64,000 nt of DNA, taken from Vulcanimicrobiota bacterium. Its GTDB lineage: Bacteria > Vulcanimicrobiota > Vulcanimicrobiia > Vulcanimicrobiales > Vulcanimicrobiaceae. The first letter of the stretch is position 1, and each line of letters starts with the position of its first letter. Positions 4,909 through 64,000 of this stretch are shown one piece after another. The notes beneath the pieces were generated by a model that saw nothing but the letters and a program-made list of their open reading frames with translations, ran no database searches and had not been told where the DNA came from. The stretch is taken from the NCBI GenBank assembly GCA_963714015.1, contig OY970223.1, forward strand, positions 3,424,001 through 3,488,000. The letters are read 5' to 3'. The position numbers were made by a program, and so were the translations under genes.

Positions 4909-6719
<1,811 letters not shown>

Positions 6720-12527: not shown

Positions 12528-12542
12528 CCTCAATTCACGTCG

Positions 12543-26109: not shown

Positions 26110-26886
26110 CTGCAACGCGAACCGCTTTCCTACGGATCGTATCTGCACATCGACGACCTGCTCGCGCTGCAGCAGCCGCTCTCGTCGCCGGCGCATCACG
26201 ACGAGATGCTTTTCATCGTCATTCACCAAGTGTACGAACTGTGGTTCAAGCAGCTGCTCCATGAATTAGATGCGGTCGTGCGCGCATTGGAACGTTCCGA
26301 GCTGCTTCTCGTGGCGAAACATTTTCGGCGCATCCACACGATTCAGCGCTTGCTGGAGCAGCAGGTCGACGTCCTGGAAACGATGACGCCGCAAGAATTC
26401 AATGCTTTTCGCGAACATCTCAATCCGGCTAGCGGATTCCAATCAATCCAGTTCCGCGAGATGGAGTTCGCTGTAGGTGTCCGGCGCACCGAAACGCTCA
26501 AATATCTCCAATTGACTGGCGAGCAGCGCGCCCGGCTCGAGCAGCGCCTTGCCGATCCGTCGCTCTATGATTACGTCAAAGATCTGCTGCGCAAGCGTAA
26601 ATTCGCGGCGGACTCTTCCGAGCAACTCGTCCTGACGTTCAAGAGCATCTACGAGAATCCGTACGAAAACTACGATCTTTACCTGCTGCTCGAGGACTTG
26701 ATTGAGTTCGACGAACGGCTGCTGCTCTGGCGCGGCCGGCACGTTCGTATGGTCGAACGGATGATCGGCGCCAAACGCGGCACAGGCGGATCGCTCGGAG
26801 CCCAATACCTGGCAACCACTCTGGAAAACCGCATGTTCCCGGAACTGTGGGAGATGCGCACGCTTCTAGGCAAGGACTACGGCTGA
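26110..26886 (+). CDS. kynA: Tryptophan 2,3-dioxygenase
   Basis: LSYGSYLHIDDLLALQ, HDEMLFIVIHQVYELWFK, ASGFQS, VERMIGAKRGTGGS; conserved N-terminus extends upstream to a CTG at 26110. Confidence 0.92.
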   Translation: MQREPLSYGSYLHIDDLLALQQPLSSPAHHDEMLFIVIHQVYELWFKQLLHELDAVVRALERSELLLVAKHFRRIHTIQRLLEQQVDVLETMTPQEFNAFREHLNPASGFQSIQFREMEFAVGVRRTETLKYLQLTGEQRARLEQRLADPSLYDYVKDLLRKRKFAADSSEQLVLTFKSIYENPYENYDLYLLLEDLIEFDERLLLWRGRHVRMVERMIGAKRGTGGSLGAQYLATTLENRMFPELWEMRTLLGKDYG

Positions 26887-33530: not shown

Positions 33531-34240
33531 CACCAGTACACCGTGTAAGTAGCGGTCGTGCTGTAAGATCCGGTCGGAACGGAGGCGGGAATCACGATGC
33601 TGAGATCGACGCAGTAGGTCTTCATGCCGCCGGCGGTCGCGACGTTCTGCCACGCCGTAGGATATACGGTGAAGGGCGAAGCCGTCGGCTGCGGCGTCGC
33701 GCCGGCGTAATTATCGCGGCTCACGTTCTTCCCGGGAAAGCTCGTTGCCGACGAAGACGGATTCTGCGCTAGCCCGTCCTTCAGAGTCCATGAGGTCTGC
33801 GCGCTGTCGACAGTGACTTGATACGCGCACGACTGCTTGAGCGTCGTGCCCGCGGTGCCGTTCAGCGTGACGATCGGGTTGTTGGTATAGAGCAGGGTCC
33901 CCATTGGATTGGGGGAGACTTCCGCTTCGACTTTGAGCGCCGACTGCGTCTGCTGCGCAACGAGCACGCTGCCGCGTTCGAATGCGTTGCCGTCGACGTA
34001 GCCGGCCGACCCCTTCGCGCGCAGCGCGATGTGCGCGGCGATCTGCGGAGCCGATACGGGCGGCCCTGCGTCTGCCGGAGCGGGCGCCTTTGCGACGCCG
34101 GTGATGTTCATGAGAATCGTGACTTGGATCTGGTCGCGCTGAGTCTGCCCGACGCCGGCTTGCGAATGACCGCCGAACGCCGCGAAGATCGCTGCCACCG
34201 CCAGTGCTGCGAAAGCTCCTCGCTTGAGCGGCCGGTTCAC
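33530..34240 (-). CDS. Putative minor fimbrial subunit
   Basis: Signal peptide; SWTLKD; C-terminal VIPASVPTGSYSTTATYTVYW; GTGA coupling. Confidence 0.65.
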   Translation of the reverse strand: MNRPLKRGAFAALAVAAIFAAFGGHSQAGVGQTQRDQIQVTILMNITGVAKAPAPADAGPPVSAPQIAAHIALRAKGSAGYVDGNAFERGSVLVAQQTQSALKVEAEVSPNPMGTLLYTNNPIVTLNGTAGTTLKQSCAYQVTVDSAQTSWTLKDGLAQNPSSSATSFPGKNVSRDNYAGATPQPTASPFTVYPTAWQNVATAGGMKTYCVDLSIVIPASVPTGSYSTTATYTVYW

Positions 34241-34896
34241 GACGCCACCACCGTGTAGACGATCCAAACGTAGTAATTCACGGTGCCGGACGTAGCGGCC
34301 GCATTGGGAACTTTGAGCTCGTAATCCTGATAGATGTCGCCGCTCTCCGAAGACGAGCTGTCGATCGGAGCCGGATACGTCCCGTAGGTGATCGTCGGCG
34401 GAACTCCGGATTCGGGCTGCGCGGGATTGACCGCTCCACCCGTGACGTTAAACGGAAAACCTGCGCTGAAACCGGTATTGCCGTCGCCGCTGGCGACGGA
34501 GGGGACCCAATATAATGTTTGATTCAGATTCATGGTGTTGGCGCCGCCGTCCGAAAAGTTTGCGGCGCCTTCGCCGTAGAGGTTGAATCCCGAGCTGTCG
34601 TTGCTGCTGACGTTCACGTGAGCGGCGTACTTGTAGAGGTAGTCCACGCCGGCTTCGATCGCGCCGAAGTCGACCGCGCAACTGTTCGCGCACGATCCGG
34701 GTCCGGGCGCGGGCGTCGGCTGGGTGCCGAGCGCGGCCTTAACTGTTCCGTAACCTGCGTTATAGTTGGGCGTCAGCGTCATCGTGATAATCGCGTTGGT
34801 ATACCACGCAACTTTCACGCTACCGGCTGCCGAGGCCGGCGCGATTGTCAAAACCGCAGCCAGCGCCACCACACAGGAGCCAATCCAGGCTCGCAA
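34237..34896 (-). CDS. Putative minor fimbrial subunit (spore coat U/Csu-like)
   Basis: AAGGAG RBS plus TTG; signal (ASA); CANSCAVDFGAI; C-terminal DYELKVP...IVYTVVAS. Confidence 0.65.
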   Translation of the reverse strand: MRAWIGSCVVALAAVLTIAPASAAGSVKVAWYTNAIITMTLTPNYNAGYGTVKAALGTQPTPAPGPGSCANSCAVDFGAIEAGVDYLYKYAAHVNVSSNDSSGFNLYGEGAANFSDGGANTMNLNQTLYWVPSVASGDGNTGFSAGFPFNVTGGAVNPAQPESGVPPTITYGTYPAPIDSSSSESGDIYQDYELKVPNAAATSGTVNYYVWIVYTVVAS

Positions 34897-34935
34897 CGCG
34901 CACACTCCTTTGTTAGTTGTACTGCTTGGTCTGAA

Positions 34936-35739
34936 CTAGTGCGTTTCGAAAGCGACCTCGCCGCCCGTCATCGATTTCCCGCCGTAATCCACCATCGCGA
35001 TTACTTGATACTTTCCGGGAGGCAGCGGTTTGCCCGAAACCTCGATCAGACGTTCTCCGCCGCGTTCGACCAACTCGTTGTTCGGAAGCGAGATCCGATC
35101 GACCGTTGCGCCATCCTTCTGGACCTCCAGTTGTCCGTTCAGATAGACGTGCATGTTGCCGGTATTCTTGAAAACGACCCGGTAGTTCTCGTCGCTCGGT
35201 TCGCTCACCACGTTCATCTTGGCAATCGCACCATCGATTTTTTCGGTGCCTGCGATCGTCAAGTAAATCTTGGTGGCGATTCGAGCCGAGAACGCTACCG
35301 CTCCCGCCCGGCGAACTGCTCGCGTTTGAAAGAAGACGATGCCCGAATACTCACCGCTGAGCGTTTTGTCGTCCGGCAAGTGCAGACTGAGCTGAACTTG
35401 CTGCGACGTTCCCGCCGGAAGGTCGAACTCGCGAGGGTTGATGAAGGCCCAACGCATCAGCGAGTTAAGTCGGCTTCCGACTGCCGCGATCTTGTATCCG
35501 CCGCTTCGATCGACCGTGAAGTCGACCATCGAGGCTTGAATGTGGGTCGCCGCCCCCGATTGATTCGACACGGTAACCGGTATGTTGTAACTCGTACCGG
35601 TAGGCGCCGAAAGATCCAGTTTTGCGGGCGAGACCGAGATTCCTAAGACACCGGCAGTTTGAGCAGGTGCTCCGGATCCCATAAGAAGTGTCGCAAACAG
35701 TAACGCTATCGCTGAGATAATGACGCGAGAATGCTTCAT
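34936..35739 (-). CDS. Putative periplasmic fimbrial chaperone (PapD/DUF916-like two Ig domains)
   Basis: Signal; ISVSPAKLDL...VTVSN...WAFINPREFDLPAGTSQQV...GEYSGIVFF; second domain FKNTGNMH...LPPGKY...VDYG. Confidence 0.75.
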   Translation of the reverse strand: MKHSRVIISAIALLFATLLMGSGAPAQTAGVLGISVSPAKLDLSAPTGTSYNIPVTVSNQSGAATHIQASMVDFTVDRSGGYKIAAVGSRLNSLMRWAFINPREFDLPAGTSQQVQLSLHLPDDKTLSGEYSGIVFFQTRAVRRAGAVAFSARIATKIYLTIAGTEKIDGAIAKMNVVSEPSDENYRVVFKNTGNMHVYLNGQLEVQKDGATVDRISLPNNELVERGGERLIEVSGKPLPPGKYQVIAMVDYGGKSMTGGEVAFETH

Positions 35740-35804
35740 ATGAGATCGTTTCGGTCGCAGGGACACCCGACCCCGCAGCCTTTCGAGCTTTCCTTCGTTC
35801 AGAT

Positions 35805-36554
35805 TTAGTTTGTAACGACCGTGTAAGTAACGGTTCCGGAGTCGTTGGCCGTCTTGCCGGCGTTGGCCGGAAGCACGACCGCGTAATCCTCGCCGAAGTA
35901 TGCCGGGTTGGTCGTGTTGTCGCTCGTGTCGAACACAGTCGTGGCCGCACCGCCGGGAACGGTTTGCGCGTTCACGCCGGAACCGCCGTACTGCAGACCG
36001 GCACACGTCGCTCCCGACCAGTTCGCAGCGGTCGTGTCCGTGGTGTCGGTGGCTTTAGCAGCCGTGTAGTTCGAAGAGGAGACGCCCGCTGCAGCCCATG
36101 CAACCGGCGCGTTCGATTTGATCGCGATGCCGCAGATCGCCGCTCCGGCTTGAGCCGGTGCAGCCGTCAGCTGCTCTTGAACCACGACGCCGGAGGTGTC
36201 GTTCGTATTGATTTGTGCTTCCGCCGCGTTGAGACCGACGCAAACGGTCGGGGCCGACGCGCTCGGCGTGATGCCGCCGAAGTCCAGCGTCAAGGCCTGC
36301 GTGCCGTTGCCGGCGCCGCCCGCGCCGGGGCTCACGTTGCAGGTGCCGCCGCCGGGAACGGTGAGCGGCGCAAGGTTGTCGCTGCCGCCGGCGCCGGCGT
36401 TGTTGTAGTTACCTTCGAGAACCATCGTCGCGACTGCGGAGATGTTCCATTGAATTTTCACGGTGCCCGTTGCTGCCGCCGCTGCGGATGCGGGGGCCGG
36501 CAGACAGGCGGAGATTGCCACGAGTGCCGTTGCGAGCGTTAAGAGCTTTTTCAC
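35805..36554 (-). CDS. Putative major fimbrial subunit
   Basis: Ala/Thr/Gly-rich; signal; TCNV...LTLDFGGITP; C-terminal EDYAVVLP...GTVTYTVVTN; own promoter upstream and stem-loop downstream. Confidence 0.7.
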   Translation of the reverse strand: MKKLLTLATALVAISACLPAPASAAAAATGTVKIQWNISAVATMVLEGNYNNAGAGGSDNLAPLTVPGGGTCNVSPGAGGAGNGTQALTLDFGGITPSASAPTVCVGLNAAEAQINTNDTSGVVVQEQLTAAPAQAGAAICGIAIKSNAPVAWAAAGVSSSNYTAAKATDTTDTTAANWSGATCAGLQYGGSGVNAQTVPGGAATTVFDTSDNTTNPAYFGEDYAVVLPANAGKTANDSGTVTYTVVTN

Positions 36555-36557
36555 TTT

Positions 36558-36651
36558 TGAGATCCTTTCACAATGCGCAATTTAAATGCCGTCCATGGCA
36601 AATGCGAAAAGCGTTACCTCAACGTTATCGGCACCTTCGATAGCCTAGTTA
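36558..36651 (-). promoter_or_regulatory. sigma28-type promoter TAAC-N15-GCCGATAA plus CsrA-like sites in the 5' UTR
   Basis: -35 at 36648-36651, -10 at 36625-36632; hairpin TGCC-ATGGAC-GGCA 36587-36600; AAGGA in the RBS. Confidence 0.7.
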
Positions 36652-39600
36652 GTAAGAGACCGTGGTAAGGCTGTTCAGATATCTTTACAGTGAATACGAA
36701 TATATGCGGCGCGTTCGGCTTGGGTAAAGTCGTCGTCTGACCGTCCTGCCAAACGATGCGATCGCCTTCGTGCGCGGCGGCCAGAAAGCGCGCGTGCACC
36801 ACGACGTATTGGCCTTTGATGGGATGCTCCGGGGATGAGCTCGAAAGTATCCGGCCGGCGCATCGGGATCGACCACCAGCGTAGCGGACGCCGACAAAAG
36901 TCGTTTGCCGTGAATCGTGGCCGCTATCTTGTACGATCCGCTTTTCGCTGCCGCGGGAACGTCGATCTCACCTTCCCAACGCGACGTTAAGCGAGAGTAA
37001 TTCAGCGGATGCGTTTCGCCGAATGCAATTGCGGCGACCGACGTCGCTTCCTCGCCGGCCGTCACCGAAACGAGCGTTTCACCGCCGGGCGGCAGGCGAT
37101 CGTGCGCGATCTCCATCATCGCCGCTTCCGAGTCTTCGGTGGCTTTGAACGAGAACACGATGTTCTTCTGCTCCTTGCCGATCGTGAAGAGCAGGCCGTC
37201 ATGGCGTTCACCGGGCTCCAGCTCGACGCTCACAGGCGGCGATTCGTTGCCCGTTCCGTCCGGAAGGGTTTCCGGATCGACGTTGACGTTGTACGTTCCG
37301 GCCGGGAGATCGTCGATGAGGAAGCTGCCGTCGTCGTTCGTGATCACCGCGTGTTCGCCCGGCTCGGCGACGACGTAAGCGTTGGTGACGCCTTGATTTG
37401 CGAGATCTTTGCCCAGAGCGGGATCGTACACGAGTTTTCCGGCAATGGACCCGAGCGCGCTCGCGGTGAAATCAACGGGCGTGTATTGACCGTTTTGCAC
37501 GATCACGTCCTTGACTGCATCCGATGACGGAAATGACGCGTCCGCAGGCAGCGAGGCCATGTCGATAGCGACGGTGTGCTTTCCGGGCGCGAGGCGGCCG
37601 AACCCGAATGTGCCGAGCGCAGTCGTCGTTACCGTCGTTATCTGATCCAGTTTGATCTGCGCACCCGAAATGGGGTAGAGATCGCCGCTCGGCGTGCGGC
37701 CCATCACGTGCCCTTCGATTCCGCCGAAACTGCCGATTTGGAAGAGCACCTGCGCGCTCTGACCGCCTTGCACGTCGATTGGCGCATACGGTTGATCCGC
37801 CGTCACACCGCGCGGAAGGGACGCCGTCTCGATTCGGACTTCGTGGTGCCCGGGCGAAACCAAGTTGAATTGAAAATGGCCGAGCAGATCGGTTCGTTGC
37901 ACTTGCGACTCGTCGAGCACCACTTCGACGTTTGAGATGCCGTTCGAAGAAGCTGCGGATCCGACGAAGTTGGTGGCTCCGGCGACGCTGACGACACTGC
38001 CCGCGATCGTCGCCGGAAGATGCGGATTGGGCCTTCCGCTGACGGCGCCGGTTCCGAACGAGAAGGGCGCATCTACCTCCAAATTGATGATGCGCGAATG
38101 TCCGTCGACCGAAGGGTTGATCGGATCGTGCGTGAACTGTTCGCCGACGTTTAATCCGAGCGTCAGGGCCGGGGATATTGCGCGGCTGAAATTTACCAGC
38201 GGCGTAATCTGCAGCGCATCGCTCGCGGCCGTGCGCGTGTGCGTAAACGACGTACCGAACGAGACCGTATTGCGCAGTCCGATCTGCGTCGAGGTGTTGA
38301 TGCTGTTCGAAAGGATCACGGACCCGGCGCCCGACGACGTGCTGTTCAGCACCTGGCCGTTGTACGTAAACGCGAGTCTGCCGAGCTGCCGCTGCAGTGA
38401 GACGCCGTACTGCGAGTTCGATCCGGGCGCAAGGCCGGTCAGCCGCTGCAGCTGCCCCTGAAACAGCGCGTTCGTGCCGAACAATTCGGTCTGAAGTTGA
38501 CCCGAGACTCCGCCGGTCCACTGCGCCGGCGCACCTGCTTGCAACTGATGCTCGTCTTGCAGAGCCAAGCTGTAATCGACAGTGCCGCGCGAGCCCGTAA
38601 ACGTTAAAGAATCGCGGCGGGTCAGGATTTGGTCGGCGCCCTCTCCCGCTTTGTCCATCGATCCGTCGAAGGAGAGTGAGGAATTCGAAAGCGTCTTTCG
38701 GAACGACGTGTCGGCAAAGTCGTCGGCACTGACCACGCCGCCGCCGAGCGCCACGAAGCCGTCGCTTTGATGCCGCAGCGTCAAGCTGCCGTACGTGAGC
38801 GCCGATCCGAAGTCGCTGCGGAACTGGTAAGCCGAACCGGATGCCGGAGCGTCCGCGCCGGCGTTCTTCCGATTTTCGAACGCTGCCTCGAGCGTTTCGT
38901 CCAGGGGCCCCGACGCATGCGAAAAACCGAAAAGCGCCAAGCCTTCGCGCTCCGGCGTGGACTCCGACGCGGCTTGCATATAGCCGGCCTCGTAGATCGT
39001 CGAGCCGGTCGTCTTGCGGGCGCGAATACCGGCGAGCCGCGCCGTAAGCCCGTCCTCAATCGCAATCGGGCCTTGGAACGTCGTCAGATCGCCGCCGGCA
39101 AACGGTACGATGACTCCGAATCCCGACAGCGTGGAGCCGAGCGGGATCTGTCCGAGCAGTCCCAGCGGCTGCGCCTGATAGGTCAGGCCGACCTTCGGCG
39201 TGGCATACGTGATCTGAGGAAAGCCCAATCGAGTGGGACCCGAGCTCGTCACACCGAGAGGGACGTTCAACTGCGTCATCGTCGAGCCGGTCCGCCGGGA
39301 AAGCTGCAGCAGGATGCCGGCATTGCCTTCAGTTTGACTCTGACCGGTGGCGCCCGTGTCGGACCCCGCGAAACTGCTGCTCAGCATGTGCTCTCCCAGC
39401 GCGAGGTTGCCGCTCATTGCGAAGGTCAACGGCCCGCCCCGCGAGGCAGCCTTCTCTGAAGGCTTGGGAGTAGACGGAAGAATGGGGGCGGGCGTGGAGC
39501 CCGCGCTTGCAGCGATGGGCGCAGCCGGGAGCGCCTGCGCCGCAATCTGGGCGAGCGCCTGAATCGGGGCCGCAATTGCGGCGGGGATGTCGGAGCGAAG

Positions 39601-39690
39601 CCCGGCCGCTGTAAGCGAGCCGGCCATCATCGTCAATCCGGTAAAGCGCAGCCCGCGGGCGAGGCGCCGTTGGAAGTCCCGTCCCCTCAT
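36614..39690 (-). CDS. Putative atypical usher-like outer-membrane protein with C-terminal SdrD-B/carboxypeptidase-regulatory domains (indels near 36830-36845)
   Basis: Long amphipathic beta-strand region, then TDLLGHFQF..VSPGHHEVRIETASLP, TALGTFGFGRLAPGKHTVAIDMASLP, TNDDGSFLIDDLPAGTYNVNVDPETLP; true C-terminus in ORF 36614-36802. Confidence 0.65.
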
Positions 39691-39823: not shown

Positions 39824-41221
39824 ATGGATGTGCTCGGAGGCGCGAATCAGGTACAGCTAAACCTGTTTCGCACCCAAATGGATGAACGGACGCAGATTAA
39901 CGCGCTGGCCAGCGGCCTACGCGTTAATAATGCTTCTGACGATCCTTCCGGCTACGCCATCGCCGAAACCATCCAGTCCAAGGTCAGCGGACTGCAGCAA
40001 GGCGTGCAAAACGTCCAGGAAACCGGCAACCTGCTCAATGTGGCGGACTCGACGCTGAGCAACGTACAGCTCATCCTTCAGCGCGTCCACTCACTCGTCG
40101 TCGAAGCGGCTTCCACGCTCAACTCGCCCCAGCAGCTGCAATCGGTCCAGGACGAGATCGACGAGCTGCTTCAGGAAGTCAACAAGATTTCTTCCGGGAC
40201 CAAGTTCAACGGCATCAGCCTTCTGGACGGCTCCCTGAGCGACGCGCCGGCACAGCCCGGCTACTTTGAAATCATCAATCCGGACAGCAATCCGGACGGC
40301 TCGGTTCCTAGTCAGGACGTCTCCGATTCGCAAAACCCGGGACAAGCGCAGCCCGGTCCGCTCATTTTTCAGGATCCGAACTACCCGATGTTCGACACGA
40401 ACGCGCACTACGTCTCGGGTTACACCGAGATGCAGGTGGTCAGCTACAGCGACAATCCGACGCCCCCCGGCGGATCGCCGCTGGGAGTGCCCGGCGTCGT
40501 GATCAAATTCACGCAGTTCAGCACCGATCCCAACTTCGGCGGCACGAACGGCGCGCAAGAACAGGTTTCCTACGGCGCATACGCGGTCGACGCCGGACAG
40601 GTCGGACCGGGCTCGCCGCCTGGACTGAACATCAATAACGCGAGCGGTTCGGCGCCGATGCTGACGCCGGATCTCGCGAATCTTTCGGCGCAAGACGTCG
40701 GTGTCGCAATGGCGGTCGAAACGTTCTATGGGGCGCCGGCCGGCACGGGGACGCCGCTGACCGTCAACACCGGCGGATCGGAAGGCGATCAAATCTCCAT
40801 CAGTCTGCCGAACGTGAACACGAGCGCGCTCGACATCGCCGGCATCAGCGTTTTGCAGCCGGTCTACGTCGACGGAAACAACAACGTCATCGGAACCGGC
40901 GACAACACGCAGGCCGTCGACGACGCCGAGGCGCGCGTGAACAATGCAATCAACTTGATCGATCAGGCCCTCGCGCAGGTGGGAGCGCAAAACGTCGCCA
41001 TGCAGGAAGAAGCGGACGGCGCTTCGCAGCAGATCGTCAACCAGGTCGCCAGCGAGAGCGCGATCCGCGACGACGACGTGGCGCAATCCACGACGCAGCT
41101 CACCAAAGATCAGGTACTCTCCCAAGTTGGAACGAGCGTGCTCGCACAGATGCAGAGCAGCGCGAAATTGGTCATTCGGCTCGTGACGGGATCGGCGATC
41201 GGCGGAGCGGGCCAAATCTAA
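39824..41221 (+). CDS. Divergent flagellin-like protein
   Basis: LASGLRVNNASDDPSGYAIA, LLNVADSTL, TKFNGISLLDG; C-terminal SAIRDDDVA...VLSQVGTSVLAQ. Confidence 0.88.
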   Translation: MDVLGGANQVQLNLFRTQMDERTQINALASGLRVNNASDDPSGYAIAETIQSKVSGLQQGVQNVQETGNLLNVADSTLSNVQLILQRVHSLVVEAASTLNSPQQLQSVQDEIDELLQEVNKISSGTKFNGISLLDGSLSDAPAQPGYFEIINPDSNPDGSVPSQDVSDSQNPGQAQPGPLIFQDPNYPMFDTNAHYVSGYTEMQVVSYSDNPTPPGGSPLGVPGVVIKFTQFSTDPNFGGTNGAQEQVSYGAYAVDAGQVGPGSPPGLNINNASGSAPMLTPDLANLSAQDVGVAMAVETFYGAPAGTGTPLTVNTGGSEGDQISISLPNVNTSALDIAGISVLQPVYVDGNNNVIGTGDNTQAVDDAEARVNNAINLIDQALAQVGAQNVAMQEEADGASQQIVNQVASESAIRDDDVAQSTTQLTKDQVLSQVGTSVLAQMQSSAKLVIRLVTGSAIGGAGQI

Positions 41222-53487: not shown

Positions 53488-54676
53488 TCAGGGTTTCGCG
53501 GGCGGCGACGCAATCCGTCCGAGCGTTGCGAGCGATTCGCGCGCGAGGTCGCGGAACGTCGGCCAAATGTCTTGGGCTTCGGCCTGGCGATACTGGTCCT
53601 GCGCTTGCGCGTTCTGTCCCAGGCGGCGGTACGTTTCACCGAGCACGAAATGGAGTCGCCCGTCTTGCGGTGCGACGGCAAGTCCCTTGACTAGGGCGGC
53701 CTGCGCGAGTTGGTACAACCCGTGGTCGTCGTACGTCGTGCCCAGATCGATGTACGCTTCCGGTTGATACGGGTCGACGGTCATCGCCTGGACGTAATAC
53801 GCAATCGCCTTCTTCCAATCACCGCCGTCGTCTATGACGTTCCCCATGTTCACGAGAGCTTCCGCGCGCTCGGGTTCCAAGTTGCGCGCGACGGACAGCG
53901 CCTTTGCGGCATCCACGTCCTGGTGCATATCCAGGTACGTCGCTCCCATGTTCGTCCAGCAGTCGTAGTTGTAAGAGTCGTACAGCACGCACAGCTTGAA
54001 CTCGGTAATCGCTTCGTCGTCGGCGTGCTTGTCCTCGAGCGACATTCCCAGACCGTTGAGCGCGAAGAGCGAGCGCGGTTCGTAGTCGAGCACGCGCTGG
54101 AAGTACTGCATGGCCAGATCCGGCTGATTGATCGACTCGTACAGCTGCGCCAATTCCAGGATGGCCTCGTCGTCCCCAGGATAGTCGCGCACCATTTGTT
54201 GGCGTTCGCGTTTGTATTCGGGAAAGTCGCCCTTACGCAGATGCAGTTCCACCAGATTAGGAACGGAATCGGTGCCCGGCAGGCTGCGATTGAACTCTTG
54301 AATGGCGAGATCGATTTTGTTCTCGGTTGCGTACACGGATCCGAGGCGGCTGTGCGTCACTTTGTCGTTCGGCGCGTACTGCAGGATGCGTTGATACGAC
54401 GCTTGCGCCTGTTGAAGGTCGCCGTGACGAAAATAGAGATCGCCCAAGAGCCGTTCGGGTTCGGTATCCGTCGGGTGCGCCGCGACGAATGCAGCCGAGC
54501 TGCTTGAGTGCCCCGTCCAAATCGCCCGCGGCCACGCGCTCGCGAGCGGAGTCCATCGCCGACTGATCGGAAACCGTCGTTTGAGCCGGCCCGGCGGCAC
54601 AAATTCCCGGAGCCGCTACGATAACCCACAGAAGTGCGCCGGCCGCAAGGCCCGTCAAACGGCGCATGAAGATCAT
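53488..54676 (-). CDS. Secreted tetratricopeptide-repeat protein (indel near 54495)
   Basis: Signal peptide, then many TPR motifs (LLGDLYF, RLGSVY, ALNGLG, EALVNMG, AYIDLG). Confidence 0.8.
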
Positions 54677-55066: not shown

Positions 55067-55509
55067 GCTCGCAGAGTTGGCTCGTGGTCGCGTTTGCCGG
55101 TACATCCGCCGGCGCCTATGCGGGAAATCTCGCCGCCGTCTTCTTCGGACGCCGCCGCATTACCGGACTGCCGTTCCCGGAGATCGTTACGGGCGGCGTC
55201 TTCTTCGCTGCGCAGCGCGGCTTTCCGAACGTCGAGCCGCTTACGATCCTTGCGGCGCTGTTTCTGACGATGGCCTGCGTGCAAATAGTTCGCGCTCGTG
55301 AAACGGCGGCGGACGCAAGGATACTGGCATTCGTTCCGCTCGCCGCGATGCTGCTGATCTGCATTCAGCAGATCTGTCCGCCGCAAACGGCCCCGCGATT
55401 GGAAGACGCGGTAGCGATTCTATTATGCGCCCCCGCGCCCGCGGCAGCAGTGTTCGGGCTAAGGAACCTTTACCTGGTACGAGAAGTCGCCTTCGATCGC
55501 GTTCGTTGA
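55063..55509 (+). CDS. Hypothetical membrane protein
   Basis: Hydrophobic segments; overlaps the upstream stop codon. Confidence 0.45.
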   Translation: MSSQSWLVVAFAGTSAGAYAGNLAAVFFGRRRITGLPFPEIVTGGVFFAAQRGFPNVEPLTILAALFLTMACVQIVRARETAADARILAFVPLAAMLLICIQQICPPQTAPRLEDAVAILLCAPAPAAAVFGLRNLYLVREVAFDRVR

Positions 55510-57273
55510 ACTCGCGGGAGCGACTGCGTTCTTCAGCGTCCAGTCCAGCAGCGTCCCTTGACCTTGGAGCGAGGAAGCAAAGGCCGCGCTATTTGCCGAC
55601 GTTGGATTGGAGCAGCACGTGAACGCTTGCGTGCCGCTTTGATATATATAGTTCGGCGAAAGGAGATCTTCAAGAGCGGGTCCGCCCGAGCATGTTCCGC
55701 CGCCGCTCGCCGAACCGCACGCGTTTGCGTGCCGGTATTCGAAAAATAGACAGTGTACGTAACCAGATCGCCCGGATCGATGTTGGTCGTGGACGCGGTG
55801 CCGCTCAGGCCGGGCGAGCTTCCCGGATCGGGCGTCGGCGTAATCGTCTGCGGCGTGGAGTTGCCGTAGGAACGGACGATCTGCGTGATGCGTTTCCAAA
55901 TCGACATGAAGGGCGAGGCGGCGCCCACGTCGACGCTGTCGGTCGAACAGTCGGTGTAAGTTGCGCCGGTCGCGCTATACATGTCCGCGGAATAGACGCA
56001 GGCGGTATTGGCAATGACGCCGTTCGAGGTCGGTTTGACGGTCAAGGTGATCGCCGGAAGCGCGGTTCCGCTCGAGACGCCGGCAGGGTACGTGCATTGC
56101 ACCGGTGAGGCGGAATTGCACGTCCAGCCGCTCCCCGAGACGCTTACGAAGGTCTCTTTCGCCGGCAGCGTATCGGTCACGTAGATCGTCTGATCCGCGT
56201 TTCCGCCGCTGTTGTTCACGCCCGCTTGGATCGTGTACGCCTCGTTAGTGTTCCGGGTGAACGGCCCGTCGTGCTGTTTGGTAATCGTGAGATCCGGCGG
56301 GGCGTTATTCGCCACGAAGTTGCGGACTTCGTGAATGTCGTTTGCGCCTCCGGTGGACGCGGCCCAGCCGAATTTGAACGTCGGAGGGAATGCGGGTTGA
56401 CCGGCGATCGCGCTCAAATTCGTCGCGGGAATGACGTTTTGATAAGTCGCCCCCGTGCCGTTGGGATCCATGTCGACGGTAAGCACGTTCGAGGTGGAAA
56501 GAATGATCCGCACGCGAACTGCCGTCGGACGCGAAGTGCTCGAGTTGTTCGTCATGGTGAAGGGGAGCGATGATGCGACTCCGCCGCTCAAATATCCGGT
56601 AACGTAGTCGTACGACGTCGAAGCCGCGCCGCGCAGCGCGACGGTTTCGGAGACTTGCCCGGGGCCGCCAACTCGTCCCTCGGTGGGATTGGAGTAGTTG
56701 CCGTACGAATCGAAGCCGACGCCGACGAACCCGCCGACCAACCCCGGCGCGTCGCAGCAGCCCGTTCCGGATTTTTGCGCGTAGCCCAGCGATCCGCCGT
56801 TTGCGCCGGCGACCGTGGGTGAGTACGATCCGTCGATCAAAAAGAACGAGATGCCGTCGGCGCCCGTCCCGTTGTACATGAACATGTCGAAGATGACTTC
56901 GAGGCCCTGCAATTCGTTGAGCGACGTATTGTAGATCACGAAACCCGACTGATTGCCGCTGTTGTTCGTCAGGCGCAGCGCGCCGCTTCCCGACGTGTCG
57001 ATCGCGGGGCTCTGACATCCCGGAATTATCCCCGGCTGTGGCGACGGAGGCGGCGTGGCCGCAGTCAAACACGGAAACGCGCTGCTTCCGGTCGTACCGT
57101 AAATGAATCCGGGCGCCGCGCCGGTCATGAAAACTCGTTTGAAAGATCTGCGGCGGCGAGGTTGGCGCCGGCGTCGCCGCGATCGCGGGCATGCTGCCGA
57201 ACGGCGAACGTCCGAGCGCACAGGCACAGAAGAGGGCGGCGCCAAAAATCCCGGCCGCCGCGAGGCGGCGCAC
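55459..57273 (-). CDS. Secreted adhesin: legume (L-type) lectin domain plus DUF11 domains (indels near 57130 and 55700)
   Basis: ALRLTNN...GADGISFFL...GGSLGY...GVGFDSYGN...FGWAASTGG..DIHEV; DLTITK...VTDTLP...IANTA. Confidence 0.78.
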
Positions 57274-60200
57274 TATTTATTTCCCCAGCCGAAAATGCGA
57301 TCGACCAGAGTGGTCACGATCACGTAAAAGCCTCGATGCACGGCCTGACCCGTGAGCGTTGGATCGACGCTTCCCCGGAAGGAGTATCCGACCGCGGCGC
57401 GGGTGCCTTGACCGATGGCGTAGCCCGCTTCGGCCGCCAAGTCCGACGATTGAGCTGCCCGCAACGCCGGGAACGGCGAGGGTTCGAAACTCGGCGCCCA
57501 AGTCCGCGCGGCGGGAAACGTTCTTGCGCACGCGCAGTCCGAAAAGCGACGTATGCGCGACGTAGGTTCCATCGCCGTCCAATTTGTATGCGGCGCGTCC
57601 TGCAACCTCGATGCCCCATCCCGGACGCCAGAACTGTTCGAAGGAAAGCACGTCCGTCTGCGTGCCGGCGGAGATCGCGCCGGTTCCGCTCATACGGTCC
57701 CATCCGAAGAGTGAGATGAAACGATCGTTTTCATCGGGGCGAAATGCGAGCGAGAATCGATCGTCGGCGGACGTGACGCCGCCTGCCGTTGCTTGCTGAA
57801 TTGCCGCGACGGCGGAGACGTTGGGCGATACCGATCCTGCTAGGCCGGCGTCGATCGTGCTGCCGCCGCCGAGACCGCCGCGCGTTTGAAATGCCAGTCC
57901 ACCGCGCAGTTTGTCCGAGTTCGAGTAGGCCAGCGAGAATCCGGAAACCGAGAAACCGCCGGCGCCCGGGCCGGTCGCGTTGGCCGACTGCACGAAGAAA
58001 TTTCCCGCCAAGTGCGATGAAAGTTTGATCTTCTGCTGCACTCCGAGTGCGGAATAGATGTTCTCGCCGCTGCCGGTCTGATCGAGCAAATACTCGGAAC
58101 TAACCGTGGTGTCGCTGCCGATGGCGCGTTCGACGCCGATCGCGGTCGATCGCGTCGCCATTGCGCCGACCGTCAGATCGGAGGAAGACTGCGCAAAGCT
58201 CGCCACCGGCGCTCCGCTGATCAATTCCCGGATGAAGAGACGTCCCCGGGCGTCCATGTCGTAGTTCAGTCTGCGCCGTTGTTTCGTCCGGCTGCGTGGT
58301 GTCCTGATCGTTGCCGGTGACGGTCATCGATCGCTGCACCGTCAGTGAAACGCGCGAACCGGCTTTGACGTCGACGCCCGCGACGGCCTGCGTATTCGTT
58401 CCGCTCGCCGTACCAAGTGTGGGCGCCGGGGAGGACTGCCCGGCTTGTGCAAGCGAGACGTTGCTCTGCGTGTGCGAAGCTCAGCCCAAGCAGAACGGTC
58501 GCCGCCGAGCCGATCGCGTGCCGCCAATTGACCGATTCGGAGCGCTGCGCATCGGAGATGCCCAAGCCATGGTTCATCTGTCCGTCGAACTCAACCGCCA
58601 GGTTGTCGTTCTTGGGATCGCTGTGCGCCCACGCGGCACGGTACGAGGTGAAGCCGGGTACCGAGAGGCCGCCGAACGGATTGGCAAAGCCCGCAGAGGT
58701 GTCGGTAAAGTTGAGCGCCGTCTGATCCGAACCGGTCTTTTGGTTGTACTGAAACGCGAGTGCATCACCGCCGTTTCCGGGCGTCAGTTGCGAGGTAACG
58801 ATTCCAGGCGCAACACCGCTGCTCGAAGAGTGCGAGAGCGTCCAGCCGCCGCCGTTCACTTGACCGCTGAGCGTTTGGGAGAAGAGCGCAAAATTGTTCG
58901 ATCCCGTTGCGTCGTTCACGTAGCCGGCTTGGAGCCGCATGCTTTGCTGCGGCCCGAAATCTGCATGCACTACCGCGCCCGTCGTTTGCGAAGCGGTCGA
59001 AGGCCCCTGGTAAGCGTACTGCACGAGCACCGATTGCGGATTGAAATTATCGTCGAACGGCAACGGCACGTTGATGAAGCGCAGTACGCCCGTCGCGTAG
59101 TCGATGGTGTAGTCGACGTTGCGCTCCAGCGGCGTTTGGGAAACGACGCCTCCGGTGCGGCGATCGAGCGCAACCAGCGTCAGATAGTCGGAACCTACGA
59201 CGATGCCGGCGTGCAGCGGCTGCGCGAGCATCGAGAGCCCGCTCGCGGGAAAGACGAGTGAAACATAAGCCGTCGTATTCTTGGCCGTAAAAAGTTCCGC
59301 TTTTGCCGCGCCGCCCGGCATCGTATATCCCGCTTTGGCGCCCCCGAGCAGCTCGTGAAACGATCCCACGCCCGACGCATCCGGTATGTCTTCGTTGAAC
59401 TGTCCCAGCGTCAGATTGCTGCGTCCGGAATCTAGACGCGCAAACAGGCGCGTGTCGGAGTGGAAGTCGCTGGAGAGCGTCGAGGAATCGCCGTAAGTGA
59501 GATAAGGGCGCTCGTTCGGATCGTCGACGAACGGCCCATACGAAGACACGGGCGAGAGACGATTCTGCGACTCGTACGCGAGCGTCAAACTGCTCTGTTT
59601 GCCGACGCGTCCTTGCGCAAATAGCCCGATGCGTCCACGCCGGGCGCCGCCCTCGTCCGCCACGCCGTCGCCGTCCACCGTAATCGGCACGGCGCCCGCA
59701 CCGGCCGCAACGATTCCATTCACGAACGGCTTGCGCAAATACGGCTGCACGAAAAACGTCTGACTCTGCTCGATGTCGCCGCACGTAAGCTGAACCCGGA
59801 CGTCGCCGGCGAGCATGCCGGGAACGATTGGAACGGTTGCGCCTCCGCCAACGTCGAGCGAGATGTCGGAAAGGTGCGAGGGATCCGGCTGAGCCCCCGG
59901 CGTGCCGTCAGGCGGGGGCGATGCGCTGCTGAAAGGTTCGGGCGTCGGAAGCAGCGGCTTTTGAGACGTGGCGACGATAGTCGTCGCGGGATTGGAGAAG
60001 TGCGCTTCTCCCTCGGTGATTGCAATGTGAATGTCGGAACCGGGCTGCGCGGGGTGCCCCCAGCGATCGAGCGCGGTGATCGAGAGCGAGCGCGGCGTGC
60101 GTCCGTCCGCGACGAGCGGGCTATCGAGCTGCGCGCGCAAACTCGCCGGAACGCCTGGGCCGTAGATCGTGGCTCGCACCTGGGGGCCGCGCGCGCCGTT

Positions 60201-60596
60201 CAATCCCACCGGCGTAATCGTCACGTCGTTCGGGCCCGGTTTGAGCACGACGCCGTAATACTCGTACTGCGTCGCTCCCGATTTCACCGCGACGACGCGT
60301 TTGCCGATCTTGCTCGACGGCACGACTTCGCCGTCAATCTTCAGTTCCACGCCCGCGTCTCGCACCGTCGAGAGCACGAAGCGAACGGCGATGGTCGGGC
60401 TTGCGAATCCGTCGCTGGGAAAAACGAACGCTGCGTGCAGCGCCCCGGTTGCAGTGTACGTCAGGTGCGAGAGATCGCCGTAGACCGTCTTGTTGACGCC
60501 TGAATCGGCGCGCGTGAAAAGCACGCCGCAAAGCACAAACGTCGCTCCGACCAACACGAGCCCCGCATGCCGCAGCGCAGAGGCAAGACGCATCAT
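57273..60596 (-). CDS. Large outer-membrane beta-barrel protein of the DUF11 operon (several indels)
   Basis: Signal; Ig-like N-terminus; GRIGLFAQG...YLTYGDSS...LFARLD; LERNVDYTIDYATGVLRF; long amphipathic strand series across ORFs 58266-60596, 57277-58257 and 57273-57605. Confidence 0.7.
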
Positions 60597-62753
60597 GGTC
60601 CGCTCTCCACTGCGAAATTCACGTCCTGCATCAACCCGTCGTCAAAAATGCCATGCACCAACTGCTGGGCTTGGACGGGGTGAACGATTCCCGGCAGCGT
60701 TGTGAGGTCCAGCCGCAGCACGTGTTCGCCGGGGCGCACGCCCGGGAACGAAAAGCGCCCTTGACGATCCGTAGTGACGGACGATCCGTCTTCGAGATAG
60801 ATCCGGACGTTCTCAACGCCGCGGTCGCCGTAAGTGAAATGCCCGGTCTTGCGTTCGTCCAAAAAGACGCGGCCCGTGATGATGGAGCGATCGGTGAAGG
60901 CACCGGAGATCACCTGAACCGTTGCGGTCGCACTTGCCGTGGTCTGCGCCTGCGTGGCAGGCACACCGGCTTCAACCGTCACCGTATTGGCAAGTGACGT
61001 GTTCGCGGAAACGCTGGGATAGACGACGGCGTAATAGGTTATCGTATGACTCTCGCCGGCTGCAAGTCCCGAACGCGTCCATATCAGCGTATTTCCTTGA
61101 ACGCTCGGTTCGAGCGGCGCGCCGTCGAGTTTTGCCGTTCCGGAAGCGTACACCAATCCCGGCGGCATCACGTCGACAATCTTCACGGCCCCCAGCGGCG
61201 CGTGCGATTGATTGGAGAAACCTACCGTGTATCCAACCCGATCGCCCGCTTCCACGACTTGGCGATCGACGGTCTTCTGCACCTGAATCGTGCGCGTCGA
61301 GAAAAGCGGCAGATTGCCGAACAAGCCGAAGACGTTCTGAAGCTGCACGGAGTTGCTGGTAAGCGCATAACCTCCGGCAATCGCGAGCGGTTGGCCGTCC
61401 AGCGCGGTAGCGCGCACGTCGTAAAGCAGGCTCTGTTCGTCGAGCCTGATGTCGAGCTGAATGCGCCGGTTCAGATATCCCGGCGCGTTGATGAGCAGGT
61501 AAAAGCGCGAACCGGCCGATGCGATTTGCGCAGGCTGCAGCGCAAAACCGTACGTGCCGTTCGTCCCCGTGACGACCGGGTTCTGCGTCCCCGGCGTCTG
61601 CGAGCCGCCGGATTGCGTCTTTGAAGATCCCGATTCTCCCGAGTTCAGATTCACGGGACTCCCCGCGGAGTCGAGCAGCGTCACGACCGCTCCGGAGACC
61701 GGCATCCCGGCGCCGCCGTAGCCGTCGAATACCACGTTGGTCGAACCGAGCAGCACGGACGCGGGCGTCGTCGTAATCGGCGTGATGCCGTCCGCGGCGA
61801 TCGTGGCGACGTTCACGAACGTCGCTCCAAGGGACTGTTCATTCTGCACGACGGCGTTGAACGAAAAATCCAACTGCGCGCCGGGGCCGACTGACGGGAC
61901 TTTCAGCGTTGATGGTCTGGCCGGAAAGGGACGCTTCCGATCCGGCAGGCTGGCCGTTGACTTCGGCGCTGGAGAGTACCGGCGCAAGACCTTGCGGCAC
62001 GGCGTCGCTGACGATCACGCCGGTTGCCGCCGATCCGCCCGAGTTTTCGGCCGTCACGTCAAACGTCACGGTCGATCCGCCGCCGGACTGCACGCTGACC
62101 TGGTGGTCGACCGTCTTTGTAACCTTCGTGTCGGCGCCGCCCGGGCCGTTGAGCGATGCGCCTGCGGCGATCGCGATCCACGCCTCTCCCGTGTCGCTCT
62201 GCAGCCCGTTCGACGTACCGCTTGCGGTGGTTTGGGCGCTAAGCGTCACTTCGATAGCGATTGCCCGATCGCCAGTCCGTTTGTGACGACCGTCACCCGA
62301 ACCGCGATCGTTCCGCCGGCCGGCACCATCGGCGAAATGGAGGATCCCACGGCGATCGGGAGCGGTCCGCCGGGGGTGATGAAGACCAGAGATGCGATCT
62401 TTCCCGCCGAGACGTTTGCCGCAGTAATGCGGTACGCATCCGTGATGTTGCTCGTATTGGAAATCGTGAACGTGCGTACGGCGCTCTGTCCCTGCGGCAC
62501 TGCGTCCGCGGGCGCGGCTTTGCTTTCCTTCGGCGAGACGACGATCGAGCCGACTTGTGCGACGGTACTGTCGATATCGGTTCGATTCGGTCACGTACGT
62601 GCGGCCTTCGCGGTCCTGAAACGTGGCCGTGGCAGCGTTAATCAGCACCGTTCCGCCCGGCGTAGAAGACGCTGCGCCGTGTCCGCTCGCTGCAAGCACG
62701 AACAAGAACACGGCGCACGCTGTCGATGGCCCTCTGCGGCGAAGGCGATTCAC
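60593..62753 (-). CDS. Secreted DUF11 plus SdrD-B-like domain protein (several indels)
   Basis: TPGGTVLINAATATF; KTVD...GDRVGYTV..SN...VDVMPPGL; ITGRVFLD...TDRQGRFSF.GVRPGEHVLRLD. Confidence 0.75.
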
Positions 62754-62774
62754 GACTCTCCGTTAGACCGCGAT

Positions 62775-64000
62775 CTACTTCACCACGACGGAGAAAGCGA
62801 TCGTCCCGAATTGGCCTGCGCCGAGCGAGAAGCCGGCACCGCCGATGGTTACTGAGAATGCTGCAGAACCGATGTTGTTGGTCGTCCAAACGTCGCCGCT
62901 GTTCCAGGTTCCGCCGCCGCCCGGCATATCGGTTGCAGCCGCGGAGAGGCCGTTCGTATTGGCCGCCCAAGTGTTGCCGATCGTCGTGCCGTCATCGGTA
63001 AGGGTGAGTTGTCCCGGCTTTGGTTGCGACGAAGGCATTCGCAGGCTCGGTGTTGCCGCTGCCGCCCGGTTACTGCGACGTTGCGATAGTCGATCGAGTA
63101 CGTGAGCGTTCCGCCCGGGCAGAGCGAACCGGCGGCGTAACCCGGAGAAGTGCCCGCGGGACATCCGGACGAAGTGACCGTTACGCTCTTCGTCAAGGCG
63201 ATGAACCCGCTATACAGCTCGTTGTGCGTCGTATTGGCTTGCGTGTTGTCATTCACCGACGTGGCGGCGATCGACGCATCGAAGCGCGAGAACGTGGCGA
63301 TGCCGGACGGCGAATTGTAGACCGCCCAGTACTGGATCGCTTGCCCCGATCCGACTGCAATGGTGGCGGTACAGGTCGCGGCAGGACTCGTACACCCCGC
63401 GTACGGGCTCGCTGCCGGGCCCGGTTCCGGAACCGTTGTCCGGGAACAGTTGCACGGTCCATCCGCCCGACGGGGCGGCTGCAACGACGGTATACGAGTC
63501 GTCTTTGTTTCCCGAGTTGTAGAGCGCGTTGGCAACGTTCGATGCCGTTGACTGCGGAGGTGTACGTATTTCCGCTCGGCGCGCCTATAACGGTGCTCGA
63601 ATTGATCGACGTGAAGCGCGATCGGCGTGAACGAGACTTGCGTGAAGTCGTCGTTGGCGTTGACTCCGACGCTGCCGTCATACGAACCGGTCGCCTGCGA
63701 GTTGGTGATCAGCGTCGACATGGTGCGTGGGCGTCGAGCTCGACGGTCCGTTGAAAACGCCGGCGGCCAAATGCGCCGTAGTTCACCGTCGTGTTGGACC
63801 AGCCGTTTCCGCCGCTGCTTCCCGATCCGGGCGGTACCACGGGCGGGTAGTTGATGCCCTGGTTGGCTGCGTAGATTGGCGCCGCGCCGCCGCTGTCGGC
63901 AGTGCCGGCCGGGATGTTGCCGCCGTCGATGTGTTCGGTGGGTTGGTTGTCGCCGAAAATCGACGTCGCGACGTTTTGATAAGCGTTCGGATTGGCGGAA
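62775..64000 (-). CDS. DUF11-type beta-rich secreted protein; partial (5' end outside the window), several indels
   Basis: IALTKSV...PGGTLTYSIDYRN...LTLTDDG...GTIAFSVVVK pieced from shifted frames. Confidence 0.65.

Follow-up and report, generated by a model that had tools for sequence, protein, structure and literature searches.

A conserved diderm operon of DUF11 proteins with a putative split-domain junction and a very large predicted outer-membrane barrel

The DNA analyzed here is a 64,000-nucleotide stretch from a Vulcanimicrobiota bacterium (assembly GCA_963714015.1, contig OY970223.1, positions 3,424,001 to 3,488,000; "the window" below means this whole stretch). It ends in a run of minus-strand genes for secreted DUF11 proteins and for B, a predicted giant outer-membrane barrel. 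These genes are the distal four-fifths of a conserved diderm operon with the gene order S-U2-U1-B-tip. The window stops at position 64000 and so lacks the beginning of U2 as well as the small S gene. The operon features in the window, all on the minus strand, are as follows (aa, amino acids; HMM, hidden Markov model).

62775..64000, continuing past 64000: 3' part only of U2, the putative shaft subunit (tblastn with the U2 protein of locus L001, phmmer family assignment)
62753 to 60593: U1, the putative base or terminator subunit (Pfam, NCBIfam, tblastn map, start and stop read)
62545..62657: orphan donor hairpin of U1, GGTVLINAATATFQD..., with the candidate isopeptide Asn (hairpin HMM)
60596 to 57276: B, a predicted giant outer-membrane beta-barrel protein of ~1100 aa from an unnamed family (tblastn, AlphaFold2, Foldseek)
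59076..59129: B motif LERNVDYTIDYATGVLRF (sequence reading, family conservation)
57273 to 55459: Lec, the putative tip protein (Pfam, tblastn, sequence reading)
56322..56990: L-type-lectin-like domain of Lec (Pfam PF18483)

The genes are closely packed. U2 and U1 are separated by 21 nt, U1 and B overlap in ATGA as read at the junction, and the GTG start of Lec lies 2 bases after the stop of B. The initial annotation of this DNA, made from the letters alone, had described at least four tightly coupled secreted genes, and this description holds: there are four co-directional genes with tight junctions, and U1, B and Lec have N-termini that read as signal peptides. However, two of the genes it had counted, DUF11 genes of '464 aa' and '304 aa', are halves of one frameshifted gene, U1.

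All four genes in the window are interrupted. Mapping by tblastn with the proteins of intact relatives reveals at least eight frameshifts over 8.5 kb. At least two lie in U2 (residues 391-795 of the L001 protein map across three frames), one in U1 near 61902-61909, three in B near 58425-58495, 58271-58299 and 57463-57473 (which places B in four tblastn frames), and at least two in Lec, near 57150 and near 55683-55731. The homopolymer context at these sites gave no explanation for the shifts. The same operon is also split in loci from long-read metagenome-assembled genomes (L015, L020, L024, L026, L049 and L064). The window copy of the operon is either decayed or the product of mis-assembly or consensus error.

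A genome scan with B found 78 loci. Family assignment by phmmer of the open reading frames (ORFs) in these loci and the window, 79 sources in all, placed B in 79, U1 in 67, U2 in 56-57 and S in 54. The order S-U2-U1-B is fixed over the 78 loci and the window and recurs in most of the 64 loci of Eremiobacterota type, with typical sizes of ~165 aa for S, ~800 aa for U2, ~720 aa for U1 and ~1100 aa for B. The Eremiobacterota are described as diderms with a lipopolysaccharide-bearing outer membrane (PMC9758169).

What follows B is more variable. Among the 50 loci with enough downstream sequence, 23 have a same-strand downstream gene that lacks the N-terminal hairpin and has the acceptor-type end described below, as judged by a strict pattern, and seven further loci fit by eye. 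These tip-like genes are of at least three types: lectin-type, ~950 aa and ~500 aa. Lectin-type tips among the 79 sources occur in the window, in L022, in L001 (its first 70 residues, at the end of the locus) and, in fused form, in L051 and L058; most other loci have tip-like downstream genes of other kinds. The lectin, which had been taken for a fixed part of the system, is the putative tip in the window but an optional part across the 79 sources. In 10 related loci (e.g. L002 12073-13257) the operon is followed by a TPR gene, a homolog of which lies in the window at 53488-54600 on the minus strand.

Public databases name the relatives only generically ('DUF11 domain-containing', 'hypothetical', 'beta strand repeat-containing' or 'OmpA family'), much as the initial annotation had stated. 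Full-text literature searches returned no account of the operon, the barrel family or a split DUF11 junction; a paper on haloarchaeal tafi and another on Shewanella fitness surfaced through word matches only and were set aside.

Several genomes hold two or more copies of the operon (L039; L030 and L063; L035 and L036; L038 and L039). The copies at L039 form a tandem pair, and L030 and L063 share one chromosome record. Operons of Eremiobacterota type, with 36-46% identity to the best intact B relative, P0004, also occur at L013, L043, L044, L046, L047, L052 and L056, on contigs whose bin labels read Verrucomicrobiia, Rhodospirillales, Janthinobacterium, Acidiferrales or Binatus. This reflects either wrong binning or transfer of the operon.

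Subunit domains and the split junction

In U1 the signal peptide precedes the orphan hairpin, which is followed by two DUF11/CLIPPER domains, one SdrD_B/CarboxypepD_reg-like domain and the tail LVHGIFDDGLMQDVNFAVE. The DUF11 model (PF01345) matches U1 at 51.2 and 36.4 bits and Lec at 37.3 bits, all above the Pfam cut-off of 24.6 bits. In NCBIfam, TIGR01451 scores 40.6, 34.6 and 28.2 bits against a cut-off of 24, and U1 passes TIGR04226, 'isopeptide-forming domain-containing fimbrial protein', with 32.1 bits against a cut-off of 30. DUF11 has lately been given the name CLIPPER, and an isopeptide bond has been demonstrated within the domain (PMC12617251), from a Lys in the first strand to an Asn in the last hairpin with a mid-domain Asp assisting; the triad is Lys715/Asp748/Asn806 in PDB entry 9IFR. 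The corresponding K..D..N pattern, which had already been noticed in the window, can be read in three domains: QKTVD / IVDVMP / LANTVTV in U1, ITKQHD / VTDTLP / IANTACV in Lec, and, in the first domain of U1, TKTVD / VSDAVP, after which a frameshift interrupts the domain. In the consensus of 76 U1 second domains, K, D and N are each kept at 80% or more.

In Lec, the signal peptide is followed by the L-type-lectin-like domain and a single complete DUF11 domain; an incomplete DUF11-like domain, whose last residues are ...GDFSYQVKVP, forms the C-terminus. The L-type lectin that had been assigned to it is backed by a nearly full-length match to PF18483 (profile positions 21-212 of 215, 39.2 bits, E 9.2e-10), but the match falls below the family cut-off of 78.3 bits, as does that of its intact lectin relative in L022 (47.1 bits). 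Sequence search found no solved relative of this domain in the PDB, and U1 gave chance-level matches only, to FKBP and antibodies. U2 ends in ...GTIAFSVVVK. The sortase motif LP.TG is absent from the four window frames checked, and the C-termini in the window (...VVVK, ...QVKVP and ...FAVESGP) end in beta-strand, in line with the earlier view that the system does without sortase signals.

The small protein S is modeled as a complete sandwich with a predicted local distance difference test score (pLDDT) of 90.1. Its Foldseek matches include RrgB (E 4.2e-3), TTHA1873 and the CLIPPER domain 9IFR (TM-score on target 0.57); the resemblance to TTHA1873, a hypothetical protein of Thermus thermophilus (7wwo/7wrk), has a TM-score of ~0.4. 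A PDB search with the S profile gave, apart from sialidases matched through their Asp-box, no more than a weak hit on 9IFR (E 0.046). Its conserved Asp-box-like turn, S.DGKTW (e.g. in S of L002, 2993-3496), is the source of the weak BNR/sialidase matches. A role for S as a PapD-like chaperone was set aside, as there is no profile support for it and the model is a complete domain.

Two further motifs recur at the ends of the subunits. U1, U2, the U1-B fusions described below and two Photobacterium proteins of 1087 and 918 aa all start, a few residues past the signal peptide, with GT.I.N.A.A.Y.D..G..Y...SN.V...V. The ending ...G...F.V.VK is common to S, U2, Lec and the downstream proteins. Judged by sequence, the N-terminal motif looks like the last hairpin of a CLIPPER domain without the domain that should precede it, and the C-terminal domains look like CLIPPER domains that end just short of their last hairpin. 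We therefore speak of donors (the orphan hairpin) and acceptors (the domain that lacks one). What is new here, on the strength of sequence patterns and modeling, is that the orphan hairpin of U1 and U2, with its candidate isopeptide Asn, would be complemented by a hairpin-less C-terminal domain, found in U2 and the tip proteins, that carries the Lys and Asp. In other words, the DUF11 proteins appear to be joined through a split domain, in addition to the internal stabilization by isopeptide domains that had been suggested.

The two pieces have complementary distributions. A hairpin HMM gives one N-proximal match in 47 of 48 full-length U1 proteins and in every complete upstream U2 listed, including the window U1 (residue 33 of ORF 61839-62753, 32 bits), and finds no match in S, standalone B, the downstream tip-like proteins or Lec. 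The HMM was used because a strict regular expression missed many true cases; trained on Eremiobacterota, it in turn misses divergent hairpins of Rhodanobacter type that are visible by eye. The hairpin Asn is invariant in 40 of 40 U2 proteins. On the acceptor side, the Lys column holds K in 43 of 46 upstream U2 and in 21 of 21 downstream proteins, and the acid column holds D or E in 68 of 74. Pfam profiles also locate the ends of two proteins: given the triad positions in PMC12617251, the lectin protein of L022 ends at DUF7927 profile position 95 of 132, and a subunit of L067 ends at DUF11 profile position 83 of 114, both before the Asn strand. The N-terminal motif is present within the first 110 residues of 38 of 65 long B-family representatives, compared with 8 for a control stretch. 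When the split pieces were aligned to the complete U1 CLIPPER domain with hhalign, Lys fell on Lys and Asn on Asn. The motif was also considered as a universal secretion signal, a reading set aside because the tip proteins and S lack it.

Structure prediction of the two pieces together points the same way. The C-terminal domain of the L001 U2 (residues 636-795) and its own N-terminal hairpin (48-92) gave a complex score of 0.78 (runs 0.78, 0.80 and 0.74), compared with 0.00 for the best of three controls; contact agreement between runs was at least 89% and partner pLDDT at least 76. In the model, VITDDG (718-725) is the pairing partner of the first hairpin strand, and the Lys strand (653-661) that of the second. 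N56 contacts Y689 and W732, and A58 contacts L657 and D723, a set of modeled contacts compatible with a Lys659/Asp723/Asn56 cluster. The predicted fit does not separate complementation within a molecule from that between molecules.

The barrel family and its fusions

A word-indexed search returned 155 relatives of B, which, where named, are hypothetical proteins of Candidatus Baltobacteraceae, Vulcanimicrobiaceae or Eremiobacteraeota. The closest intact one, P0004, is 74% identical to the window B. An exhaustive HMMER search with a B profile extended the family to 3191 cluster representatives at E<=1e-3, of which 1274 score at E<=1e-30. No Pfam family matched B (6 proteins at E<=1 and 20 proteins at E<=0.1), no NCBIfam family matched P0004, and the B profile had zero sequence matches in the PDB even at E<=10. 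The ESM Atlas held no structure for P0004 or S and only unnamed or generically named look-alike clusters.

AlphaFold2 modeled P0004 from 69 aligned sequences with a mean pLDDT of 76.8 and a predicted template modeling score of 0.62. The model begins with a signal helix, continues with two or more beta-sandwiches at ~55-300, and then forms 44 strand elements between residues 293 and 1102, 41 of them 7-17 residues long. Weak Big_1/Invasin_D3 matches recur in the N-terminal part of B in Pfam. Searched against the PDB with Foldseek, the best interpretable match is LptD (probability 1.0; query TM-score 0.17-0.19, target TM-score 0.24-0.31), followed by TonB-dependent receptors (probability 1.0; TM-score on the query 0.12-0.14). 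Neither SprA nor the ushers FimD and PapC are among the 49 matches listed of at least 500. The comparison with known barrels that had been proposed for this protein thus yields generic large-barrel similarity. Distant members of the family approach Pfam barrel models (OMP_b-brl at 28.0 bits against a cut-off of 28.7; also DUF2490, Porin_7 and BBP2_2), and C-termini resembling beta-signals, such as GPYLKLRFKFDE and GFYVTFTTLVDRIFGWGK, occur in the family. A signal peptide, an all-beta hairpin meander and a beta-signal-like C-terminal strand, the general marks of an outer-membrane barrel, can all be recognized in the sequence and model of B.

We conclude that B represents a separate family of what are predicted to be very large outer-membrane barrels, and the AlphaFold2 model supports the earlier guess that the ~1100-aa protein is a barrel. 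Together with the family survey, it also upholds the idea of a dedicated, conserved DUF11 operon with a very large predicted barrel outside Bacteroidota. Two specific identities were rejected. B has no Plug or TonB_dep_Rec match in Pfam, its TM-scores to TonB-dependent receptors are those given above, and its ~41 long strands compare with a 22-strand barrel, which disposes of the TonB-dependent receptor, a match to which the initial annotation had named as a refutation; and it has neither an Usher match in Pfam nor an usher among the 49 Foldseek matches listed. The motif LERNVDYTIDYATGVLRF is the best-conserved stretch of the family, with R494, D497, Y498, D501, G505 and F509 of P0004 invariant. 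In the model, the conserved segment RNVDYTIDYxTGxLRF forms three short strands, located at 486-509, with a pLDDT of ~63-67.

In Proteobacteria and Nitrospirota, U1 and B are a single protein of ~2000 aa. Photobacterium, Rhodanobacter-type, Nitrospirota and Caulobacterales contigs encode proteins of 1964-2199 aa in which a U1-like N-terminal half, with DUF11, SpaA and SdrD_B/CarboxypepD_reg domains, precedes the B module. Of the best 150 B-family representatives, 65 are at least 1300 aa long, and among those listed the B module lies near the C-terminus. The fusion genes are flanked by genes for S-like and DUF11 proteins. Some fusions have an OmpA domain just before the B module, and one representative has SLH domains there. 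In the L067 fusion the OmpA domain is built in at residues 804-902; in Photobacterium damselae (L068) a small OmpA-family lipoprotein gene, 12364-12885, lies between the U1-B fusion gene and the last DUF11 subunit gene.

A different fusion is found in L051 (2523-9875), where one protein of 2450 aa combines a lectin N-terminus, 15 DUF11 stretches and the U1 C-terminal module. Its N-terminus is 40% identical to the window Lec over 359 residues (E 8e-73), and it matches the U1 C-module with 39% identity over 456 residues (E 1e-86). Its gene overlaps the start of B by 4 nt, and that B is shorter, at 981 aa. L051 and L058 are two copies on one contig, ~15 kb apart. Taken together with the U1-B fusions, this fusion fixes the order lectin - stalk - U1 module - barrel. 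Where U1 meets B, the inserted peptidoglycan-binding domains would put the junction on the periplasmic side, and the stalk would have to cross the barrel to be outside the cell.

A proposed surface fiber and its rivals

We hypothesize, with confidence somewhat better than even, that the operon encodes a surface fiber of tip, shaft and base that is joined by hairpin complementation and anchored to the giant barrel B. All proteins of the operon would be exported by Sec, judging by signal peptides read by eye. The multidomain DUF11 (CLIPPER) subunits would then be joined head to tail through the split domain. The acceptor would be the C-terminal domain, which has the first-strand Lys and the mid-domain Asp or Glu and ends before the final hairpin, and the donor would be the missing hairpin with its Asn, which stands alone at the start of the mature form of the next subunit. 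Proteins with an acceptor only would form the distal tip (Lec in the window, the ~950-aa or ~500-aa proteins elsewhere), U2 with both donor and acceptor would form the shaft, and U1 with a donor only would form the base. The C-terminal module of U1, fused to B in other phyla, would dock on the N-terminus of B, and B would consist of two or more periplasmic immunoglobulin (Ig)-like domains followed by a barrel of ~40 strands. Since U1 and the U1-B fusions are donor-only, the tips acceptor-only and U2 two-sided, the chain would run tip-U2(n)-U1-B, with N-termini facing away from the cell. We further infer that complementation takes place between molecules, that the Lys-Asn bond at the subunit junction is covalent, and that B serves not merely as an anchor but as an export pore for folded subunits.

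A number of observations weigh against this hypothesis. The window copy carries its frameshifts in a region where many genes outside the operon, such as those for OPT, PhaC, glutamine synthetase, Nramp and a GGDEF protein, are full-length relative to their Pfam models. U2 and the ~950-aa proteins lack any Pfam match. The end of S is acceptor-like but has no conserved Lys or Asp; the triad is missing and the model is a complete and confident sandwich, and S may be a cap, an initiator or a chaperone. No chaperone-like gene is conserved beside the operon, the largest flanking cluster being an upstream one present in 11 of 45 loci. The triad itself has exceptions, as the Asn is missing in 2 of the 47 U1 proteins with a hairpin HMM match and the Lys is missing, by alignment, from one Photobacterium subunit. 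The hhalign probabilities for the split pieces are weak (12% and 5%). The score mark passed in complex prediction is reached by 116 of 157 solved complexes and by 2 of 215 mismatched pairs, counts that hold only roughly with custom alignments. The pass may also mirror mere likeness to the intact CLIPPER domain, solved as 9IFR, and the prediction is blind to whether complementation is within or between molecules. The phrases 'about 40 strands' and 'one closed barrel' are readings of the DSSP string of the model.

Of the alternatives, the one that survives best, though we consider it unlikely, is that B does no more than anchor the fiber or, in the style of an autotransporter or inverse autotransporter, export nothing but its own base. 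The other DUF11 proteins would then leave the cell differently, or would be adhesins in their own right that happen to share the operon. That a whole fiber could be contained in one polypeptide is shown by the U1-B fusions and by the lectin-stalk-U1 fusion of L051, and the Big_1/Invasin_D3-like matches in the N-terminal part of B recall the arrangement in intimin and invasin. Against it stand the strict co-occurrence and order of S-U2-U1-B, the complementary distribution of donors and acceptors and the predicted hairpin fit, and a barrel of ~40 strands would be far larger than one unfolded chain needs.

There is a slim chance that the hairpin instead completes the C-terminal domain of its own molecule, as in nested Gram-positive tip pilins, which would make U2 a closed monomer and leave no polymer. 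Both pieces are present in U2, where complex prediction fits either case, and discontinuous isopeptide domains exist, such as GBS104-like_Ig, which is made of residues 137-211 plus 587-717 (PMC12617251). This explanation does not extend to the rest of the operon, however. U1 and all U1-B fusions are donor-only, whereas an acceptor-type end without a donor is found in Lec and in the ~950-aa and ~500-aa proteins encoded downstream. Donor-only and acceptor-only orphans need partners on other molecules.

It is very improbable that the fiber is a tether inside the envelope, running from the outer-membrane barrel through the periplasm with its lectin-like domain on cell-wall glycan. In favor of such a tether are the peptidoglycan-binding modules (OmpA or SLH) that some fusions carry ahead of B, after the U1-like part, and the separate OmpA lipoprotein gene of the Photobacterium operon. 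On the other hand, several Ig-domain subunits of 700-950 aa would be much longer than the periplasm is wide, DUF11 stalks are described as parts of fibrillar adhesins at the cell surface (PMC12617251), and the variable tip genes suit adhesins.

We give almost no credence to B as a relative of SprA within an export route resembling the type IX secretion system (T9SS), although the DYxxDYxxG-like motif is there, in the most conserved part of B, and the predicted number of strands is of the order of the 36 in the SprA barrel: SprA_N of Pfam matched none of 26 B-family proteins and the SprA model of NCBIfam did not match P0004, no PDB chain was matched by sequence, SprA is absent from the Foldseek matches listed, and no T9SS C-terminal sorting domain was found by Pfam on the DUF11 proteins scanned. 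The likeness of LERNVDYTIDYATGVLRF to SprA, which the initial annotation had noted by eye, is therefore not supported.

The proposed fiber, with subunits complementing one another and B as its anchor, resembles chaperone-usher pili in its logic. In those pili, Sec-exported subunits with an incomplete Ig-like domain are completed by the N-terminal segment of the next subunit, and the same would hold here, where the tip would likewise combine a lectin domain with an acceptor-only domain and the last subunit would anchor the fiber to an outer-membrane barrel. In type 1 and P pili, where FimA forms the rod, these roles are described for the FimH tip, the FimI terminator and the FimD usher (PMC12122975). 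In its parts the operon differs throughout. No PapD-like Pfam match occurs in S, U2, U1, Lec or their neighbors, and no chaperone gene is conserved. B has no Usher profile match, and FimD and PapC are not among its listed fold matches. The donor is a two-stranded hairpin rather than a single strand, and the subunits are multidomain proteins of 340-950 aa built of isopeptide-type domains. The usher barrel has 24 strands, whereas ~40 are predicted for B.

The subunits themselves are closer to those of the sortase-assembled pili of Gram-positive bacteria (RrgB and the pilins of group B Streptococcus), which are also large pilins of CnaA/CnaB-type isopeptide domains; S finds its best model matches in RrgB and 9IFR, and U1 matches TIGR04226. 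However, no LPXTG occurs in the four window frames checked, the host is a diderm, and polymerization is proposed to proceed by domain complementation and not by sortase. Donor-strand complementation combined with isopeptide bonds between subunits, as proposed here, has precedents in the archaeal threads of Sulfolobus and the BsaA matrix fibers of C. perfringens (10.1101/2022.04.26.489512, PMC9715654, PMC11580942). Those systems are archaeal or monoderm, have no outer-membrane barrel and use other subunit families, and the corresponding covalent bond is, in our case, only inferred.

CLIPPER fibrillar adhesins (9IFR; Acinetobacter silvestris B9T28_05395) share the domain family and the Lys/Asp/Asn triad with the operon, and PMC12617251 describes CLIPPER domains as stalks of Gram-negative surface proteins whose anchor is OmpA-like. 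The bond described for those adhesins stays inside one domain, which is part of one long polypeptide. In the operon, the domain would be split over two gene products that are tied to a giant barrel family, of which we found no mention in the passages of PMC12617251 consulted. The nearest parallel to the split itself is the SpyTag/SpyCatcher pair, in which a peptide and a domain reconstitute one isopeptide domain. That pair is an engineered split of CnaB2 that locks covalently (PMC6539128). It is man-made and derives from a Gram-positive adhesin, whereas the operon may hold a natural, genome-encoded, CnaA-like counterpart. As for B, SprA and LptD are likewise very large single-chain outer-membrane barrels, and LptD is its best interpretable fold match. 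They show no kinship in sequence or profile, the TM-scores reach only 0.17-0.31, and no LptE or T9SS partner genes are found in the operon.

A stronger version of our hypothesis holds that the operon represents a new class of diderm pilus that requires neither sortase nor chaperone, in which hairpin-completed CLIPPER domains form spontaneous intermolecular Lys-Asn isopeptide bonds and the folded, cross-linked chain leaves through the ~40-strand barrel. We put this version forward as tentative and would sooner bet against it than for it. If it is true, the pilus family would span Eremiobacterota, Proteobacteria, Nitrospirota and others, and would add a further route of fiber assembly across the outer membrane whose parts are not homologous to ushers, secretins or SprA. 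A single-chain barrel of ~40 strands would rank among the largest known, and a barrel family of thousands of members, nameless in the libraries searched, would gain a function. It would also account for the motif that many Gram-negative 'DUF11 domain-containing' proteins share just past the signal peptide. If the junction is covalent, it would constitute a natural, self-catalyzed protein ligation pair of use in protein engineering, and would bear on how soil and peat bacteria come by very robust adhesion fibers.

Other genes in the window

Beyond the operon, the window holds a tryptophan 2,3-dioxygenase ORF (26206-26886, plus strand) that begins at position 45 of the profile, with its match falling into two stretches; this may be another indel, outside the operon. 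An IS21-type element at 4909-6355 (minus strand) has an IstB-like ATPase (Pfam positions 3-238 of 238) beside a truncated integrase-core ORF of 219 aa. At 967-1980 (minus strand) lies a gene for a secreted-looking beta-sandwich protein of 337 aa with DUF4382 and CarboxypepD_reg domains, which has no relation to the operon.

A group of minus-strand genes at 29454-39690 is probably what had been described earlier as a first surface system, the operon being the second. It includes an ORF of 1399 aa that no Pfam family matches, a protein of 1001 aa in which CarboxypepD_reg/SdrD_B-like domains are repeated, and several ORFs of no assigned family. It is followed, on the opposite strand, by a flagellin gene at 39824-41221 (plus strand).

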